A DNA stretch of 64,000 nt, taken from Promethearchaeota archaeon (GTDB lineage Archaea; Asgardarchaeota; Lokiarchaeia; Sigyniarchaeales; SOKP01). Made by a program: the position numbers and the translations under genes. The stretch lies in NCBI GenBank assembly GCA_011364925.1, contig RDOA01000008.1, positions 32,001-96,000 of the forward strand. The letters run 5' to 3'. The notes under the pieces are model-generated. The model saw only the letters and a program-made list of their open reading frames with translations. It did not search any database and was not told where the DNA came from. Shown here in pieces: positions 30,124 through 60,989 of the stretch. Each line of letters begins with the position of its first letter. Position 1 is the first letter of the stretch.

Positions 30124-33100
30124 CTATATTTTTTCTTTCAATTTAAGTCTAGGAGCTAATCCAAGAGACATCATTTCTTGAAGTAAAAGCTTAAAGGCAT
30201 AAGAACATACAACCTTCGATATCACGGTCCCTTCTCCACATACTGGGCAATATCTCTTGTCTCTATTTCGATCGTACACTGCTAAAAGCCCACATTTTTC
30301 ACATACTAAAATAACCGTTCGATCTGACTCATCAAGTAGTCTTTCCTTTAATAACAGAGCCGACCCATGACCTACTAAACAATCTCTTTCCATTTCACCG
30401 AATCGTAAGCCCCCTTCTCTTGCTCTACCTTCTGTCGGTTGCCTTGTCAAAATCTGAACTGGTCCTCTCGCTCTTGCGTGCAGTTTATCCGCTACAAGAT
30501 GGTATAATTTCTGATAATAGATTGGAGCGCAATAAATTCCTGCTTCGTATTTTTTTCCAGTAATCCCGTTATACATTACTTCTCTGCCGTTAAATTCAAA
30601 ACCTGCTTCCACCAATTGGTCTTGAAGTTTTGTGATATCTTTCCACTCGAACGCAGTGGCATCGCCTAATTTACCAGTTGTACATGCTATTTTGCCACTG
30701 ATCCCTTCAAATAATTGACCCAAAGTCATTCTTGATGGCATGGCGTGGGGATTTACTATAATATCCGGAATTACTCCATTTGAAGTGAACGGCATGTCTT
30801 CTGCTGGTTGAACGAGACCAAGTACTCCCTTTTGGCCGTGTCGAGAAGAAAATTTGTCTCCTAACTCTGGAATTCTCAAATCTCTAACTTTAATTTTAAC
30901 TAATTTGTTCCCATCAACAGTTTCTGAAATGATCACAGTATCTACTATTCCTTTTTCGTTATGTCGCATATTCTTTGAAGTTTCGCGTCTATTCGGTTGC
31001 ATCAATTCAAATTCTTCGTAAGATTTAATGAACCGAGGCGGAGATGTTCGACCAATAAGTACATCACCTCCATTAACAGCGGTTTCAGGTTCAATAATAC
31101 CGTCTTCTTCAGATAATAACCTATACGATTCAGCAGATTTGAATCCTCTCACACCTCTCTCAGGAATCTCGAATTTATCCAATTCTCCTCCGGGATACTT
31201 TCTTTCTTCAGCATCATAAGTTCTAAAGAAGTGACTACGCGCTAATCCGCGTTCTATAGAAGCTTTGTTTATTATAATTGCATCTTCAATGTTATATCCT
31301 TCGTAACTCATCATTCCAATTACAAAATTTTGACCCGCTGGTCGCCGATTGATTCCAATTATCTCCATTGGACTTGTTTTCACTAAAGGCTGTTGAGGAT
31401 AATGGAGTGTGTGGCCACGAGTATCAAGCCTTAAATGCATATTTGCAGCAAACAGACCTAGTGCTTGCTTAACCATCCCTGCTTCATAAGTATTTCGGGG
31501 AGACTGATTGTGTTCTGGAAATGGAATAATCGAAGCACATATTCCAAGAATTGCTGCTGGAGATATTTCAAGATGAGTGTGTTCTGCAGTAATTTCCTCT
31601 TCAAACATAGCAATGAACGCGTTTTCTTCTTCTTCAGCATCCAGATATTCTATAACACCTTTTTGGATTAAATCTGACCAGTTATATTTACCTTGTTTAA
31701 GTTTCTCAATATCTTCATTTGTGATAAGGAGTTGTTGGTTTTTGATGATAAATAATGGTCTGGTCGCTCTTCCAGCATCACAATTTATTTGAATTTCTCT
31801 TGAATCGTGATAATAACCAATATTAACGTGTTGACCAATTTCACCTTTACGTCTCTTCTCTCGTAGCTGATTAGTGAAGGGATTGTATTTTTGATGAATT
31901 CCGACTAATTTACCATTAAGGAAGACATTTACTTTTTCTCCTCTTACGTTTTTCACTTCGTTAATAGGTATTACGCCCAGATCGATTAATATATTCTCGA
32001 TAACCCTTTCGTCAGCACCAACAGAGATAATAGACGCTAATCCTAAGTTTTTAACTAACCCACAATTAGGTCCTTCTGGAGTTTCTGCTGGGCAAATCTT
32101 GCCCCATTGAGTAGGATGTAAATCTCTTGCTTCAAAATGAGGTTGACTTCGGCTTAATGGAGATATTACTCTTCTTAAATGGCTTAATGTTCCGACGTGA
32201 TTTGTTCTATTTAACAATTGACTAACGCCCGCTTTACCACCGACCCAATTTCCTGTTGCTAACGCGTGTCTTATTCTTTCTGTTATTACATCTGCTCTCA
32301 CAGCGGTTTTTATATTTGGAGCTCTACCTCGAACAGCGGTACGTTCTAGCTGGTATTTTATGTCTTTTACAAGATTCAAAAACGCAACTCTGAAAAGAGA
32401 TGTAAATAATTCACCAGCTAATTTCAACCTTTTATTAGCGTAATGATCTTTATCATCCGGCTCTCGAAAACCTAGCGCAAGTTCCATAACCTTCTGAGCC
32501 ATTTGGCCTAGATAATAAGCTTTTTTAATTCGGTCCTCCTCAGCGTTTCCAACGTGAGGTAATAAGTATCGATCTAAGACTTGAAGTGCTCTTCTAATAC
32601 GATAATCTTTTGTCTGTCCTATTGCCACCCTTTTACCGATGTAATCTAAAGAGTTCTGTTGAGATTTTTCTGGATCTTTTAAAACTTGAATTTCTGAAGC
32701 GACATCTATAACTGGAATTAATTCTTTTTGAATATCTTCGTTTTCAGAGATTGCTTCAAAAATTTCCTTATCAGAGTGCAATCCAAGAGCTCGCATCAAG
32801 ATAGCTAAGGGAATTTTACCGGGAACTGACGGAAACGATACTCTTAGATTTCCATCTTTCTTTCTTTCAATTGTAACTGGTGCACGAAAACCACTTCTAG
32901 TAGAAAACACCTTAGCTTGATGAGTTGCACTGGAACTTCGACTAGCTTCTTCTGCAAGAATTCTATTAGGAGCTAAATCCTCTTGTGTTACTAACACTCT
33001 TTCTGTTCCATTGATGATAAAATATCCACCAGGATCAAGCGGATCTTCTCCTCGATTAATTAGTTCTTGTTCAGATAAGCTTTCCAGAGGGCAACGACAG

Positions 33101-50847: not shown

Positions 50848-51582
50848 TTATCTTACATCGATAAACTTTAAAAGACCTAAATCATCTAAATCATCGATAA
50901 TAACATCAATCTCTGCTTCGGGTACGCCCGCTTCTTCTGCTATATCAGCAATAGTGTGAAATCCGTCCGCTAAATGCGCTATTTTATACTGCTCCTCATT
51001 TAAAAAACCTTGAATAATCACCTGTGAAGGAAGACGTTTCGATGTCCAAGCTGGCTTTTGGTCCCGAACATTTCTTAAATCTGCCTCTGAGAGAACTAGA
51101 CCCTTTTTTTCAATCTGCTTTTGGGATTTTAGAAAATCTTTCTCAAAAATCTTCAAAATAGGTATCCTTAATGGAACTTCTGCCACATGACCGTCTTTTA
51201 ACATGACATCCATAACATTTTCAAATCCTTTGAATACTCTAATGTCTCCTGACCAACTCTCCATTAGATTTCCATATCTTTCAATGAATTTGTCAATAAT
51301 TCCACTAAGTACCTTATGGGTGATTTTTGCGTCGTCATTTTTATCCGCGGCAGCTGTACATAAGATCCCTTCCTTAAAGACTAGAAGAAGATAAAATACC
51401 TGCATATCAATGATTTTCAATTCACCCGATCCTTTCGAAAATTCTACTGAAAAGTCTTTTAGTGCCGTTAAAAAACCAGATACTAAATCTTGGTTAAACT
51501 CTATTGTTCCATATCTTCTATGAACCAAACAAATGCCCGTATAATTTGAAATTAAGTAAACATTGTGAAGGATAACAATCAA
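50848..51582 (-). CDS. longin domain + C-terminal winged helix protein (NPRL2-like architecture)
   Basis: VYLISNYTGICL...DLVSGFLTALKDF longin; C-terminal ADGFHTIADIAEEAGV...IIDDLDDLGLLKF wHTH. Confidence 0.78.
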   Translation of the reverse strand: MIVILHNVYLISNYTGICLVHRRYGTIEFNQDLVSGFLTALKDFSVEFSKGSGELKIIDMQVFYLLLVFKEGILCTAAADKNDDAKITHKVLSGIIDKFIERYGNLMESWSGDIRVFKGFENVMDVMLKDGHVAEVPLRIPILKIFEKDFLKSQKQIEKKGLVLSEADLRNVRDQKPAWTSKRLPSQVIIQGFLNEEQYKIAHLADGFHTIADIAEEAGVPEAEIDVIIDDLDDLGLLKFIDVR

Positions 51583-55266: not shown

Positions 55267-55374
55267 TCTTTTTCTAAAAACCAAGACTTATAAATAAATT
55301 CTATTATAAATTTTGTATAGAACCTATTGAAAATTTGCTCAAAAAAGGAAATTAAATAAGAGTGTTGAGGTAAA

Positions 55375-55530
55375 ATGACCCCATTAGGTGAGGAATTAAA
55401 AGAAGAAATCAAAAGAGGCGTTACGCTCCAAAAGGTTGACGAAGAAGACATGAGAAAACGCGAAGAAGAGAAAAAGCGACGAATGGAAGAATTAGAAAAA
55501 GTCAAAGAAGCCTTAGGAGCAAAAGATTAA
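55375..55530 (+). CDS. 51-aa WH2-like microprotein (not in ORF track)
   Basis: MTPLGEELKEEIKRGVTLQKVDEEDMRKREEEKKRRMEELEKVKEALGAKD*; GAGGT just upstream, TATA-like TTATAAA upstream, T-rich terminator downstream. Confidence 0.75.
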   Translation: MTPLGEELKEEIKRGVTLQKVDEEDMRKREEEKKRRMEELEKVKEALGAKD

Positions 55531-55540
55531 AGTATTTGTG

Positions 55541-55573
55541 TTTTTCGTATTTTTATTTTTTTTCTTTATTTTA
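55541..55573 (+). terminator. archaeal T-rich terminator
   Basis: TTTTTCGTATTTTTATTTTTTTTCTTTATTTT directly after the microprotein stop. Confidence 0.55.
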
Positions 55574-55677
55574 ATGAAAAGACAGACTTAGGTGCAATTT
55601 AACTTCTTATTAACATTATAACATTTATAGATAAGCAATAGTTGTGCAAAATTGAATTTAGGAGTTGGATTTCGTAC

Positions 55678-56751
55678 TTGAGAATTCTGGAGATTGATGA
55701 AAAAAACGAGATTATTTCAGTAAGAGCTGAAGATTTAAATGACTTATGGACATTGTATAATGTCATTGATAAGAACGATGAAGTGTCAGCTAGAACTCAA
55801 AGAAGAATTGTACTAAAAGAAGGTTCAAAAGGAGAAAGAAAGCAAATGCACTTGAAACTTAATGTTGAATCTGTCTCTTTCCATGAATTTACAAACAGGT
55901 TAAGGGTAAAAGGGACTATTTTAGAGGGTCCAGAAGATTTCGTTACGTTCGGAACCTATCATACATTCAATATAGAACCTGGACAGAAGTTGTCAATTAA
56001 AAAGGAGAAATGGCTAAAGAGCGAAATTAAACGCCTTAAAAAGGCATCCATTTTCGAAAGTGATTTTAATATGGTAATAGTAGCAATTGAAACGGGATTA
56101 GCAACTATAGCTCTTATTACAAACTTCAGTCATAACAGGATTGCGACAATAAAGAAAAATATACCAGGAAAGAGATACGAACAATCGTTCAGAAATAAAG
56201 CTATAGAAGAATTTTTTTTAGACATCAGCAAAGTTCTTAATGAAAATCTTAAGCGTGTTAATACTAAAGCACTAGTAATATGTGGTCCAGGAAATACGAA
56301 GGAGCGTTTTGGTCAATTCTTTAAAGAGAAAAGTTTAATTCCAAATTTACCAAAAACCTATTTCGTCCAAGCTAGTTCTGGAACGGAGAGCGCTATTTTA
56401 GAAACTATGAAGTCAAAAGAATTAAAGAATCTGAAGGAACATGTAAAAGTTATACTGGAAACCGAGAAAATTGAAGACATTATGCAATTATTTTCAACAA
56501 ATTCAGATCTTATTGCGATTGGCTTTAACGAAATATCCAACGCAATTGAAAAAGGTGCTATTAAGGAATTGTTTTGCGTTGATGTTTTAATTAGAGGAGT
56601 ATCGAAAGAAGAAAAATTACAAATCGAGCAAATCCTAAATGGAGTTGAAAAAATCGGTGGAGAAATTCATATTTTAAGTAGTGAACACCCTACGGGACAA
56701 CAAATAATTGATTTAGGATCTCTCGTAGCTATTTTAAGGTATAAAATTTAG
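55678..56751 (+). CDS. pelA: pelota/Dom34 ribosome rescue factor
   Basis: EDLNDLWTLYNVI, FHEFTNRLRVKG.I, GTYHT, IPGKRY, GPGNTK, LVAILRY; likely start TTG 55678 after AGGAG. Confidence 0.94.
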   Translation: MRILEIDEKNEIISVRAEDLNDLWTLYNVIDKNDEVSARTQRRIVLKEGSKGERKQMHLKLNVESVSFHEFTNRLRVKGTILEGPEDFVTFGTYHTFNIEPGQKLSIKKEKWLKSEIKRLKKASIFESDFNMVIVAIETGLATIALITNFSHNRIATIKKNIPGKRYEQSFRNKAIEEFFLDISKVLNENLKRVNTKALVICGPGNTKERFGQFFKEKSLIPNLPKTYFVQASSGTESAILETMKSKELKNLKEHVKVILETEKIEDIMQLFSTNSDLIAIGFNEISNAIEKGAIKELFCVDVLIRGVSKEEKLQIEQILNGVEKIGGEIHILSSEHPTGQQIIDLGSLVAILRYKI

Positions 56752-56769
56752 AAATCAAATCTTATTATT

Positions 56770-57819
56770 TTGGTCACGATTGTGAGTGAAGAAATTAAAT
56801 ACTTAGATAAAAATTCAGAGATACCCTTAATGGGTGTAGATTTTCTTGGAGTTATTGATAGAGGGACAAATATCATCGAACTTAAACCCCTAACACTCTG
56901 CAATTTACGATGTAAATATTGTTTTGTTAGTTCAGGCGATTATTCTACTAACTTTATCGTTAATTCACAATTTCTAGTCGAAAAAGTTAAAGAAACTGCT
57001 AAAATAAAGGGAAACTATGATCTTGAAATACATATCGCTCCTTACGGTGAAATGCTACTTTATAGAGAATTATATGATCTATTAGGTAGCTTGTCAGAAA
57101 TAAAAGGTATATCAATAATATCAATGCAAACTAATGGATTGTTATTGACTAAAAAAGCTATTGAAAGATTAAAAGAAAGCAAACTTACGAGAATTAACAT
57201 CAGTTTAAATAGCTTAAAAGAAGAATATGCCTCTTATTTATGCAATTGTGCTCATTATGATGTTGAAAAACTAATCAAGAATATTTATTCTCTCCTGAAT
57301 AGCAATATCCAAGTATTAGTAGCACCAATTTGGTTTCCAGGAGAGAACGAAAAAGATATAGAAGAAATCATAGAGTTAGTCCTCAAATTAAGAAGTGAAG
57401 GTTTTTCAAAACAACAAGTTCAAATCGGAATTCAGAAGTATTTGATTTATAAAACAGGTAGAACTCTAAAGAAAATACAACCAAAATCGTGGGACTATTT
57501 TTACCGACAATTATCACGATTAGAAAAGAAGTATGACATAAAATTGAAACTTGGACCAAGAGATTTTGGCATACATAAAAGAACGCAAGTTCCCAGTTTG
57601 AATCTTAAAAAAAACGACCTGCTAAATGTAAAAATCGTCTCAAGGGGTCGATGGTTAAACGAGTGTATTGGAAAAATCAACGATAACCAAGGAATTAAAA
57701 TCCTTTTGAAAAAACCAGTTGTTTTTTCCGAAGAATTAGTAGGTAAAGTCATTGTAGCAAAAGTTATTAAAGCAAACTATAGAGATAATATACTTACAGC
57801 TTTATTTCCATACAAATAA
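56770..57819 (+). CDS. radical SAM protein with C-terminal TRAM-like domain (COG2100-like)
   Basis: IPLMG..FLGVIDRGTN, CNLRCKYC, SMQTNG, GIQKYL.YKTGR. Confidence 0.88.
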   Translation: MVTIVSEEIKYLDKNSEIPLMGVDFLGVIDRGTNIIELKPLTLCNLRCKYCFVSSGDYSTNFIVNSQFLVEKVKETAKIKGNYDLEIHIAPYGEMLLYRELYDLLGSLSEIKGISIISMQTNGLLLTKKAIERLKESKLTRINISLNSLKEEYASYLCNCAHYDVEKLIKNIYSLLNSNIQVLVAPIWFPGENEKDIEEIIELVLKLRSEGFSKQQVQIGIQKYLIYKTGRTLKKIQPKSWDYFYRQLSRLEKKYDIKLKLGPRDFGIHKRTQVPSLNLKKNDLLNVKIVSRGRWLNECIGKINDNQGIKILLKKPVVFSEELVGKVIVAKVIKANYRDNILTALFPYK

Positions 57820-57914
57820 TTGGTAAGTAAAAAGACTAAATATTATAATTATGAATTTACATATGAATTATATCTTATATCATTTTTAATTAGAATTAAG
57901 TTGGATTGATTAAA

Positions 57915-58538
57915 ATGAGCCCAATTATTACACATGAAGACGAACTTGAATTAGCCGACATGGAAAAAGAATTAGCAAATCAAATAAAAAAATTAGCCAA
58001 AGCCCAGAGCGCTTTAATCGATTCTCAAAAAAAATACGCCGATAATTTGAGAAAAGCAAATTTAGCTAGAGATATGTTAAATAGGTCTTTTCGAGATGTA
58101 CTGAAACAAATGCAAACACTGGTAAGAGAGAGAAAGTCTAATATCAAAGATGAAGAAGTCAATTACTTTCAAGACATTATCCATAAAAATGACGAATACA
58201 TTACTGTTAATAATAAATATATCGACGCAATAAAAGATCTTGCAACCAAAAAGGATTACTTGGTGGAAAAAAAATACGAGTTTGCTGACGCTTTAAGCGA
58301 AGTGGCTAGTACGCGAGGTGTAGTTATTAAAAAAGCGTTGTCTGTAGAAAAAAAGAAGAATGATTTAATTGAGGGAGAAAAAATGAAAATTTTAGAATCT
58401 GAATTGAACGATCTTCAAAGAGAGTTTGATCGCGCACGAGATGTGCTGCTTAAAAAGATTAGTCAATTTCTTCAGGTCAAAGACGAAGTAGATGAACTCT
58501 GGGTCAATTTAAAAAAATCAGTTGATAAATCTAGCTAA
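57915..58538 (+). CDS. all-helical coiled-coil protein, BAR (Vps5/SNX)-like
   Basis: ~207 aa of continuous heptads, no Pro after residue 3; C-terminal EKMKILESELNDLQREFDRARDVLLKKISQF...ELW resembles helix 3 of SNX-BAR; likely start ATG 57915. Confidence 0.6.
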   Translation: MSPIITHEDELELADMEKELANQIKKLAKAQSALIDSQKKYADNLRKANLARDMLNRSFRDVLKQMQTLVRERKSNIKDEEVNYFQDIIHKNDEYITVNNKYIDAIKDLATKKDYLVEKKYEFADALSEVASTRGVVIKKALSVEKKKNDLIEGEKMKILESELNDLQREFDRARDVLLKKISQFLQVKDEVDELWVNLKKSVDKSS

Positions 58539-58677
58539 CAGTAGTTTTACTTTTTTTTAACTTTTATTTTTTGATTAAAATGTTTTGTATGAGCTTAAAT
58601 TTATTAAACAGTGCAAATATATAATATTTAGAAAATTTACTAGGATATATCGTCAAAATTAAAATGGAGAAAGTAAA

Positions 58678-59121
58678 ATGGCAGAAGAATTCGCAAATTT
58701 CATGCAAGAAACAAAAAAAGCTCCACTTGAAGAAAAATTAAACGCTTTTGGAGATATCGTTGAAAGAATGATGTCTGTTATTCTGAGGATTCCAGATTTA
58801 GTAGATCAGTCTCTAGCAAGTGTTGGACAAAGAATTTCAACTTTAGAGTCACGATTAACCACAATTAATAGTGAAGTGTCAGCTCTTAGAACAAGAGGTT
58901 CTGGAACAGCTCCAGTTATCGCTGCACCTTCTGCTCCTACGAGTGCTCCTCCGCCCACATCGGGTCCACCTGGAGGTCCCCCCGGTGGCCCACCTGGAGG
59001 CCCACCACCTCCGCCAGGAGGTCCTGGTGCAGCACGCCCAGCGAGTCCTGTAAGCTTAAGAGGTGCTATAATGGGCGAGCTAAAACAATTATTTTCAAAA
59101 AGAGCTCAATCAGGACAATAA
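58678..59121 (+). CDS. coiled-coil / polyproline / C-terminal amphipathic helix protein (WASP/VASP-like architecture)
   Basis: GGAG SD; N-terminal coiled coil, (GPPG)3-GPPPPPG tract, C-terminal SLRGAIMGELKQLFSKR. Confidence 0.8.
   Translation: MAEEFANFMQETKKAPLEEKLNAFGDIVERMMSVILRIPDLVDQSLASVGQRISTLESRLTTINSEVSALRTRGSGTAPVIAAPSAPTSAPPPTSGPPGGPPGGPPGGPPPPPGGPGAARPASPVSLRGAIMGELKQLFSKRAQSGQ
58963..59028 (+). repeat. GC-rich 12-bp coding repeat encoding (GPPG)n-GPPPPPGGPG
   Basis: ggtccacctgga ggtccccccggt ggcccacctgga ggcccaccacct...; varied synonymous codons. Confidence 0.8.
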
Positions 59122-59246: not shown

Positions 59247-60989
59247 TTGGTTAATTCGGTGCCGAACGCATTAAATCGTGAAGTTGAATTCTCTAAAGTT
59301 AGAATTGCTCACGATTTTCAGAAGCAAATATTAGAAATCCCTTCTTTTATAAGAGTTCTCAATAATTATTATTATAATAAAACTGTTGTCCAATCAAAAT
59401 TAAAACCTTTAGCATTAAGGAAATTCAAAGGAGGGAGGAAACCTTTAGAGACTAATAAAAATTGGCTTTATCTTCTTCCTACGCCTTTAAATGTCTTAAG
59501 TAGGGATTTACTTCATAAAAAAGATGCTTTTCAATTCCCAGATAGCATTTTGTTATTTGAAGCTTGGATGAACTTAGGATTGGGTGCGTTATACCCTAGA
59601 TTAGCGCTACACTATAAATTCCCAGGAATATTAAAGAATGAAAAAATAAGGCATGTTTTTCAATTCACATTTTCTACCTCAAGAGGATTTGGATTTCCAA
59701 TCTATTTTGGACCACAATTTTATGAGTATTTTTTGACGATTGGTAAAATTCTTGAACCCTTATTTAAGTGGAGTCATACCATTTGTCATAGAGCTAATCA
59801 GGCCATATTTCTGGTCGGTAAGAGATATGGGATTAAAAGGCATCATCCTGGGGAATTTGAATCAGTTATTATTTCAGAATATGAAAATAATATGTTTAAA
59901 GGGATTGACACTCTCCTTCATGGATATTTCACTCAAGACCCAAAAAAACTGGGAACATACTCAAATTTAGACGAGATTCTTGATAATACGATGTTTTCTT
60001 ACTCTATTGGTGATCACGCTATGAGTATAGAAAGAAAAGTTAAGAATCAGACAATTACTATTCCTCTGATTACTCACGATTATATTGTTAACAAGTATAG
60101 TGTCAATTTTTATGAGTATCTAAAAGGTTTAATTTCCATCAAGAATCTTCTTATTAAAAAGATTTTGCTCTATAAAACGCAGAGAAAAGCATACATTAAC
60201 AAATTAAAAAGAATCGATAAAATTAAATTTAGATTAAGCCAATCTAAAAAAAAATCCATTCCCAATTTAAGATTGTTTAAACGATTTTCTAAAATTCAAG
60301 AATCTTCGCTTCACATTAAGCTTATGGAACAATTATTGGAAATATTATGGACTTCACCGTTGTACACTCACGCAATTCACCACAGTATAAATGAAGAAAT
60401 CACTTCTCAAAAATCTACAGACAACGAAACCCTTACCAATTTTGAAAAAGATTCAATGGATTCAATATTTTTATTATATATAAAATTTTTCGAACAAAAT
60501 AACGATTTTACATTTAAGGAAGTTGAAGTTTTTGACGAATTAAGGAAGGCTAGGGATCTAATAGGAACTATGTGGTTATCCTTTAAAGAAAAGCATTTTA
60601 AATTCGGTATTAAAAAAATAAATGAACTTTCACTTTTATCCATTACCAGGCAAGATTATAATAAATTTGTAAACGATATGATAAATAACCTCATACCTAT
60701 ATTTTCAATTTACGAAATCTTTAATAGATCGCTTTCAGAATCCGTTTATCCAGAATCTATCCCTCAAACCAAACGAATAGGAGCTTATATCGCAAGTTTT
60801 TTAACATCAAGGTTCAATCCTTTTGGTGTAAATTTAATGAACCTCTTCAACAGGCTTGCCTTTTATAATTGGAGCTACTTCATTATAAAAAAGAAGCTTA
60901 ATCGAACCAACTTTTTCAAATCAATTTTTAAGCTCCCTATATGGAAGTATATCCCTCCCAACATTGAAAAGAAAATTCTATCTTGTTAA
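59247..60989 (+). CDS. hypothetical protein (580 aa)
   Basis: long ORF; no motif recognised. Confidence 0.75.
   Translation: MVNSVPNALNREVEFSKVRIAHDFQKQILEIPSFIRVLNNYYYNKTVVQSKLKPLALRKFKGGRKPLETNKNWLYLLPTPLNVLSRDLLHKKDAFQFPDSILLFEAWMNLGLGALYPRLALHYKFPGILKNEKIRHVFQFTFSTSRGFGFPIYFGPQFYEYFLTIGKILEPLFKWSHTICHRANQAIFLVGKRYGIKRHHPGEFESVIISEYENNMFKGIDTLLHGYFTQDPKKLGTYSNLDEILDNTMFSYSIGDHAMSIERKVKNQTITIPLITHDYIVNKYSVNFYEYLKGLISIKNLLIKKILLYKTQRKAYINKLKRIDKIKFRLSQSKKKSIPNLRLFKRFSKIQESSLHIKLMEQLLEILWTSPLYTHAIHHSINEEITSQKSTDNETLTNFEKDSMDSIFLLYIKFFEQNNDFTFKEVEVFDELRKARDLIGTMWLSFKEKHFKFGIKKINELSLLSITRQDYNKFVNDMINNLIPIFSIYEIFNRSLSESVYPESIPQTKRIGAYIASFLTSRFNPFGVNLMNLFNRLAFYNWSYFIIKKKLNRTNFFKSIFKLPIWKYIPPNIEKKILSC

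Follow-up and report, generated by a model that had tools for sequence, protein, structure and literature searches.

Three co-oriented genes and their predicted transcription

The window analysed here is a stretch of 64,000 nucleotides from the Lokiarchaeial contig RDOA01000008.1 (assembly GCA_011364925.1, Sigyniarchaeales; positions 32,001 to 96,000 of the forward strand), and homologues of its genes carry the labels Promethearchaeota or Lokiarchaeota. A first-pass annotation had singled out three of its genes, here called A, B and C, as a WH2 peptide, a BAR-like protein and a WASP-like protein forming one candidate actin-membrane remodelling module. As described there, these open reading frames (ORFs) are co-oriented on the + strand and separated only by pelota and a radical SAM gene; they are real genes, beyond chance. 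We consider it about 65% probable that each of them is transcribed on its own and has a product of cytoskeletal or membrane type, and that they are not a co-regulated module. No match to a WH2, BAR or WASP-family domain reached the Pfam cut-off for the three proteins, none of the three families was found described in literature searches, and, as judged from sequence, the family labels are resemblances only. The features of the locus are as follows.

55267-55374, + strand: putative promoter of gene A, with TATA-like elements at 55288 and 55304 (sequence pattern only)
55375-55530, + strand: gene A, ORF for a 51-amino-acid WH2-like microprotein, with a GAGGT element upstream at 55367-55371
55531-55641, + strand: T-rich gap between gene A and pelota; a run of eight T, probably serving as an archaeal oligo-T terminator, then a TATA-like element
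55642-56751, + strand: pelota, a housekeeping gene intervening between A and B (Pfam eRF1_1/2/3)
56770-57819, + strand: radical SAM protein gene, also intervening between A and B (Pfam PF04055, E = 1e-23)
57915-58538, + strand: gene B, 207-amino-acid stand-alone BAR-fold protein; in-frame TTG at 57906
58539-58677, + strand: gap of 139 nt between B and C; an 8-T terminator-like run, then a TATA-like element at 58601
58678-59121, + strand: gene C, 147-amino-acid adaptor with coiled coil, polyproline and amphipathic tail
58921-59050, + strand: polyproline-coding tract of gene C, 71% GC against 32% GC in the window
59056-59112, + strand: C-terminal helix of gene C, R-x-x-I-M-x-E-L-K-x-L-F-x-K-R, reused in other proteins

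Each of the three genes appears to have an AT-rich promoter gap of its own, and oligo-T runs lie 3' of A and B. The T-rich stretch noticed earlier between the adjacent genes B and C consists of the terminator-like run and TATA-like element listed above, and the two genes are probably transcribed separately. The window was also rightly said to hold no actin or profilin gene: five actin-family genes of the same genome are on other contigs, and its sole profilin-like match is on contig C16. The second near-canonical actin of this genome (L092) is 82% identical to Lokiactin, and a divergent 508-amino-acid actin paralogue with a zinc-ribbon insertion was found at L094:946-2472.

Gene A and the WH2-like unit

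The gene A product consists of an amphipathic helix with the motif G-x-x-L-x-K-V (residues ~4-21) and a charged second helix (residues ~22-49). Orthologues are present in 40 of 41 related genomes (E <= 0.1) and, among 301 Asgard genomes, in 76, of which 71 are from the window's order and the remaining 5 give weak and partial matches. A WH2-like unit occurs across the order, and gene A encodes it as a protein of its own. In an alignment of 31 such units, an LKKT/V-type motif comes after the amphipathic helix at the distance seen in WH2, and the alignment to the N-WASP WH2 is gapless. At E <= 10, a profile built from these units had seven matches in the PDB, among them three N-WASP and Spire constructs with tandem WH2 domains (best E = 0.068); these matches are suggestive and lie below significance. 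Whole-genome scans with the Pfam WH2 profile yielded nothing above the cut-off, and control genomes gave matches at the same loose threshold. An RPEL reading, based on the K-P-x-x-x-E-L-x-x-R spacing of some members, was set aside because the upstream spacing matches that of WH2.

The unit recurs in other contexts. The order-level comparison covered four families of the window's order, including its own (f1), and the closed genome and proteome used for reference were those of Ca. Lokiarchaeum ossiferum B35 (6,035,313 bp), from the same order. In family f2, A-type units form arrays of 480-490 amino acids with a period of 45-46 amino acids, including a 488-amino-acid array of about ten units adjoining genes for YggS and a thermosome subunit (L145:6361-7827 in L. 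ossiferum; L071-L076); no usable match to the array protein was obtained in the ESM Atlas. An A-type unit is also fused to an Asgard profilin (profilin part, PDB 5zza, E = 2e-9), to Ras-like GTPase and ribbon-helix-helix (RHH) proteins, and to an LRR protein. The RHH proteins, some of them preceded by a Ras-like GTPase, include one encoded in the window's genome (G000:C81:18930-19286, - strand) and others at L083:4959-5351, L221 and L222; if the unit binds actin, these fusions could be actin-sensing transcription factors of an MRTF-like kind. The short A orthologues of f2 (L081, L082, L079 and L126) have a longer linker and seem closer to beta-thymosin than to WASP-type WH2.

A published co-immunoprecipitation (co-IP) of Lokiactin from cross-linked cells (doi 10.1101/2025.11.30.690169, Supplementary Table 2) allowed the relatives of A, B and C to be placed among actin-associated proteins. 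Orthologues were mapped to the table by accession offsets, a tRNA count, gene order and monoisotopic masses. The masses agree for Elf1 (24.01, 02218), A (8.24, 02436), B (23.9, 02568), the array protein (56.41 kDa, both computed and listed, GNAMCCOK_04085) and the product of the gene three upstream of it (47.31 kDa, 04082); gene C corresponds to GNAMCCOK_02219 by its position beside Elf1. The orthologues of A (UYP46132.1 = GNAMCCOK_02436), B and C were all detected as proteins in L. ossiferum, C in 16 of 16 proteome columns. The array protein was enriched at log2 4.53 (23-fold; adjusted p 0.002; 44 peptides, 70% coverage), ranking fourth of the non-contaminants and above both actin (4.44) and the gelsolin 2DGel1 (3.97). 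Three proteins rank higher, a probable GTP cyclohydrolase I and two whose intensities are erratic; among the credible actin partners in the table, the array protein has the highest enrichment. GNAMCCOK_04085 is not named in the searched passages of the study, and those of the Nature version list only profilin, gelsolins, an ARF GTPase and two BAR proteins. In co-IP it is the array relative that associates with actin, and direct binding by either protein would be a further step. Taken together, the motif, the profilin fusion and the co-IP of the tandem relative give good support to a WH2-like assignment of gene A.

A BAR-fold protein and a polyproline adaptor

The AlphaFold2 model of gene B (predicted local distance difference test score, pLDDT, 93) contains three long helices (7-71, 79-149 and 154-202). 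The tip between helices 2 and 3, a site of membrane contact in N-BAR proteins, carries two conserved basic residues, K146 and K148. When the model was compared with 48,161 PDB representatives using VIA, the top four matches were all BAR proteins, namely arfaptin (Z 13.2), SNX1 (12.0), Lsp1 (11.5) and SNX5 (11.3), with 165-187 residues aligned at 6-14% identity (arfaptin, 186 residues at a root-mean-square deviation of 4.8). The top Foldseek matches were likewise mostly BARs, none of them at E <= 0.001. A Pfam FCH match was obtained for 9 of 69 members (best E = 0.0018), with other helical families matching more members, and a PDB sequence search returned no BAR. Neither a Pfam scan nor the model revealed an SH3 or other polyproline-binding domain in B. 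The modelled fold supports a BAR-like assignment, and B probably acts in BAR-type membrane scaffolding.

Orthologues of B are present in 33 of the 41 related genomes and in 74 of the 301 Asgard genomes, restricted to the order. That of L. ossiferum (UYP46261.1 = GNAMCCOK_02568) ranks 46th of 3,061 proteins in the proteome, where actin ranks 59th. Its identity with either of the published proteins Bar1 and Bar2 was ruled out by accessions, masses and hhalign (probability about 1%), and B represents a distinct BAR-fold family, more abundant than actin. Published Bar2 (451 amino acids, L183:9207-10559) looks like two tandem BAR units, the second half of which weakly matches FAM92. Divergent paralogues of B were found at L143:5523-6158, L087, L088 and G000:C69:5730-6392; of these, the L. 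ossiferum one (UYP46633.1, probably GNAMCCOK_02948) appears to be expressed. In several f2 genera (L066-L070, L086 and L142), B immediately follows Pcc1 where the proteasome/exosome cluster ends, a position usually occupied in archaea by prefoldin beta.

In the model of gene C, helix 2-13 and a coiled-coil helix (17-74) are followed by a disordered Pro/Gly linker and an amphipathic basic helix (127-145). Proline runs of at least five residues are present in 22 of 44 family members. Orthologues were found in 39 of the 41 related genomes and, by profile search, in 203 of the 301 Asgard genomes and 57 of 70 genera, and on these matches the family is near pan-Asgard; it is rare or was not found with this query in f9 (3/28), f26 (3/21), f31 (0/11) and f21 (0/5). 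In 20 distant matches examined, the coil and linker are kept in all and the tail helix in 19. A search of 1.84 billion proteins with the C profile gave full-length matches of ~120-180 amino acids, GTPase fusions and repetitive long coiled coils, and eight of the matches, scanned against Pfam, contained no eukaryotic WASP-family domain over the cut-off. Matches in the ESM Atlas were to unnamed archaeal clusters only.

Among the 44 family members, an LKKT motif and a C-terminal Trp each occur in one and an acidic tail in five, and Pfam scans of C gave no WH1 or CRIB match. Because it is devoid of the LKKT motif and the acidic-Trp tail, C is not a WASP-family member and is 'WASP-like' in layout only; of the three original labels, those of A (motif, profilin fusion and tandem co-IP) and B (fold) retain support. 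EVH1 and a C-terminal tetramerisation coil are also missing from C, the model of which has three helices only, with the long coil N-terminal and no Pfam match. The best PDB sequence matches of C are generic trimeric coiled coils, ranking above BRICK1 (E = 0.013). Its coil matched CCDC53 at best with E = 5e-4 (21 bits against a cut-off of 24.6), and the CCDC53 profile placed the C locus first, below the cut-off, in only 2 of 10 genomes. In whole-genome CCDC53 scans nothing exceeded the cut-off, and control genomes matched at the same loose threshold. The BRICK1 and CCDC53 matches are indistinguishable from generic coiled-coil matches, and homology may be regarded as a lead. VASP-like Asgard polyproline proteins may be mentioned, perhaps with gene C among them, by Ponlachantra et al. 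in BioEssays in 2023. As for polyproline binding by Asgard profilins, it was reported to be absent from the Loki and Odin profilins assayed and present in a Heimdall profilin (PMC8410842).

The entire C layout (coil, polyproline and tail helix) is also found C-terminally fused behind Rag/Arf-like small GTPases in several genomes (L090:4023-5369; L228-L231). Two tandem C paralogues are present at L098 and L101 (families f5 and f6), which suggests a hetero-oligomeric coiled coil. In the LRR and RHH fusions, a C-type tail helix constitutes the first helix of the A-type unit, suggesting that the C tail is half of an A module; it may dock at the same site. The C orthologue 02219 is expressed, yet it has no row among those listed down to log2 -1.06 in the co-IP table, despite the cross-linking, and is therefore not enriched with Lokiactin.

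Gene order, interpretation and comparison with known systems

In f1, each of the 13 tabulated genomes, which represent eight genera, has A, B and C inside a span of 3.6 kb, and the order A-pelota-radical SAM-B-C is kept. The cluster is split in every other family, and in three closed genomes, including that of L. ossiferum, the three genes are 55-392 kb apart (B-C, 200-392 kb). At the genus level, A is accompanied by pelota in 24 of 24 cases and by GNAT in 22 of 24, and C is accompanied by a 580-amino-acid orphan as often as by B (19 of 20 each). This orphan (window 59247-60989, + strand) has no Pfam match. In the other families, A keeps GNAT and, in many cases, pelota as a neighbour, C is accompanied by Elf1, and B by archease or the exosome cluster. 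The ranges are also unequal (C in 203, A in 76 and B in 74 of the 301 genomes), and those of A and B match only as order-wide genes. A gene for a Longin-like domain fused to a winged helix (window 50848-51582, - strand) adjoins RtcB and archease, and longin/roadblock genes are recurrent near B and C in other families.

It is highly improbable that a WH2 peptide, a BAR protein and a WASP-like protein work as one unit here and owe their clustering to this. The conservation of the cluster in eight genera of f1, the cytoskeletal or membrane resemblance of each part and the location of the three genes within about 400 kb in closed genomes would fit such a module, but no cluster exists outside f1, the intervening housekeeping genes are equally conserved, and C lacks the WASP-defining motifs and is not enriched in the co-IP. 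The synteny and phyletic co-occurrence proposed in the first-pass annotation as checks of its coupled module argue against it: no linkage of the three genes beyond background synteny was found, unrelated neighbours being equally kept, and among the Asgard genomes there is no matching distribution. At the level of gene order the module is largely refuted, and the cluster is unfit as evidence for it; the original observation is confirmed, and its interpretation is in part supported. Under the reading of three independent genes, clustering in f1 would reflect inherited gene order in a housekeeping region that contains RtcB, archease, the RimI-like GNAT, pelota and Elf1.

Genes B and C alone could form a functional pair, with a BAR scaffold recruiting a polyproline adaptor to curved membranes and A being separate. 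Each of the four families has members in which the two are within 1.3 kb of each other, ordered as B>C or C>B, placed convergently, or arranged as C>third gene>B; in addition, A, B and C are all expressed in L. ossiferum, and the co-IP shows a slight enrichment of B with actin (log2 0.71, adjusted p 0.053). On the other hand, the two genes are far apart in the three closed genomes, B has archease nearby in 9 loci, no less often than it has C, C is present in about 130 genomes without detectable B, B has no polyproline-binding domain, and the terminator-like gap separates the two. We regard the pair as unlikely. The proximity of B and C may be a remnant of an ancestral RtcB-archease region, and its being a weak functional tie is improbable.

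Several results weigh against our reading of the three products and of their independence. The short A orthologue is only weakly enriched in the co-IP (log2 0.57, adjusted p 0.105), and the experiment is cross-linked and has background: the probable GTP cyclohydrolase I outranks the array, and ribosomal L1 and Elf1 are enriched as well. No array gene was found in the genome from which the window comes, and significance with PF02205 was not reached for A (1 of 16 members, E = 0.079). For B, the margin of the BAR matches is thin because SipB comes next (Z 11.0), a Z of about 13 is at chance level for helical bundles, with non-BAR bundles close behind, and the ESM Atlas matches are generic coiled coils and the plant DUF632 (TM 0.68). 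Lastly, the recurrence of B-C proximity in four families, with orders and orientations that differ, is less well explained by pure drift.

The resemblances could also be superficial: A would be a charged small protein tied to translation, B an ordinary coiled coil of three helices, and C a generic coiled-coil adaptor that serves small GTPases and has no actin role. No family cut-off is reached, the most stable neighbours of A are the RimI-like GNAT and pelota, A-type units are fused to RHH and LRR domains as well, and C finds its best PDB sequence matches in generic trimeric coiled coils. We nevertheless consider this very unlikely, in view of the strong co-IP enrichment of the array relative, the profilin fusion, the WH2 chains among the few PDB matches of A, and the four BARs at the top of the structural matches of B, aligned over 165-187 residues.

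If the three genes have the independent, cytoskeleton- or membrane-type products proposed here, the first helix of A would most likely dock in the barbed-end cleft of Lokiactin, with L-x-K-V running along the monomer as in WH2 structures. By such docking, single copies would buffer actin monomers like beta-thymosin, and the arrays of ~45-amino-acid units would line up monomers or bind along filaments. B, with the fold predicted by its model, would most likely form an antiparallel BAR-type dimer that binds lipid and scaffolds curved membrane. C, given its layout, would be an ancient oligomeric adaptor, the tail helix of which docks on a partner; that this partner is an actin-family protein is plausible, if somewhat less likely than not. 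A broader scheme, in which Lokiarchaeia run a primitive toolkit of WH2, nucleation-promoting factor (NPF) and BAR proteins, seems to us distinctly unlikely as a whole: A would buffer Lokiactin, the array would nucleate or scaffold filaments, C would be a pan-Asgard forerunner of the BRK1/CCDC53/WAVE/WASH coiled-coil subunits, linking small GTPases to actin via polyproline and a C-type helix, and the abundant B would recruit the machinery to protrusion membranes. What makes the locus valuable is not the cluster but the individual proteins, chiefly the WH2-like family and the abundant BAR-fold protein. With the polyproline adaptor, these provide three named, expressed candidates in cultured L. 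ossiferum, and if it is true that A binds actin via its motif, archaea have both stand-alone and tandem WH2 regulators.

Among known systems, WH2 (PF02205; N-WASP, WAVE and Spire) and beta-thymosin share with A the amphipathic helix followed by G-x-x-L-x-K-[VI] at the same spacing, the occurrence of single, tandem and profilin-adjacent forms, and, for the tandem relative, co-purification with actin. Unlike WH2, A is a stand-alone archaeal gene below the Pfam cut-off, its motif runs straight into a charged helix of 25 residues, one face of which has the conserved pattern R-x-x-E-L, and its repeat period is 45-46 amino acids as against about 28 in the N-WASP construct. The known Asgard WH2-like motif sits between two gelsolin domains, according to the co-IP study (doi 10.1101/2025.11.30.690169).

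Members of the BAR superfamily (arfaptin, SNX1/SNX5, Lsp1/Pil1 and the I-BAR of MIM) resemble B in having three long helices in about 200 residues and a basic helix 2-3 tip; B differs in the absence of PX, PH and SH3 domains, in a net charge near zero and in its 6-14% identity. The Ena/VASP and WASP/WAVE/WASH proteins have EVH1/WH1 and CRIB, neither of which was detected in C, and LKKT and an acidic Trp tail, which C lacks; C also has its coil at the N-terminus and is not enriched with Lokiactin; they share with C an oligomerisation-type coil, polyproline and a terminal amphipathic basic helix. This tail helix presumably resembles the FAB of VASP and the C helix of WASP/WASH. Compared with F-BAR/WASP and SNX-BAR/WASH coupling, genes A, B and C have no linking domain and no conserved cluster outside one family, and what they have in common with those systems is that the same classes of parts are present within one genome.

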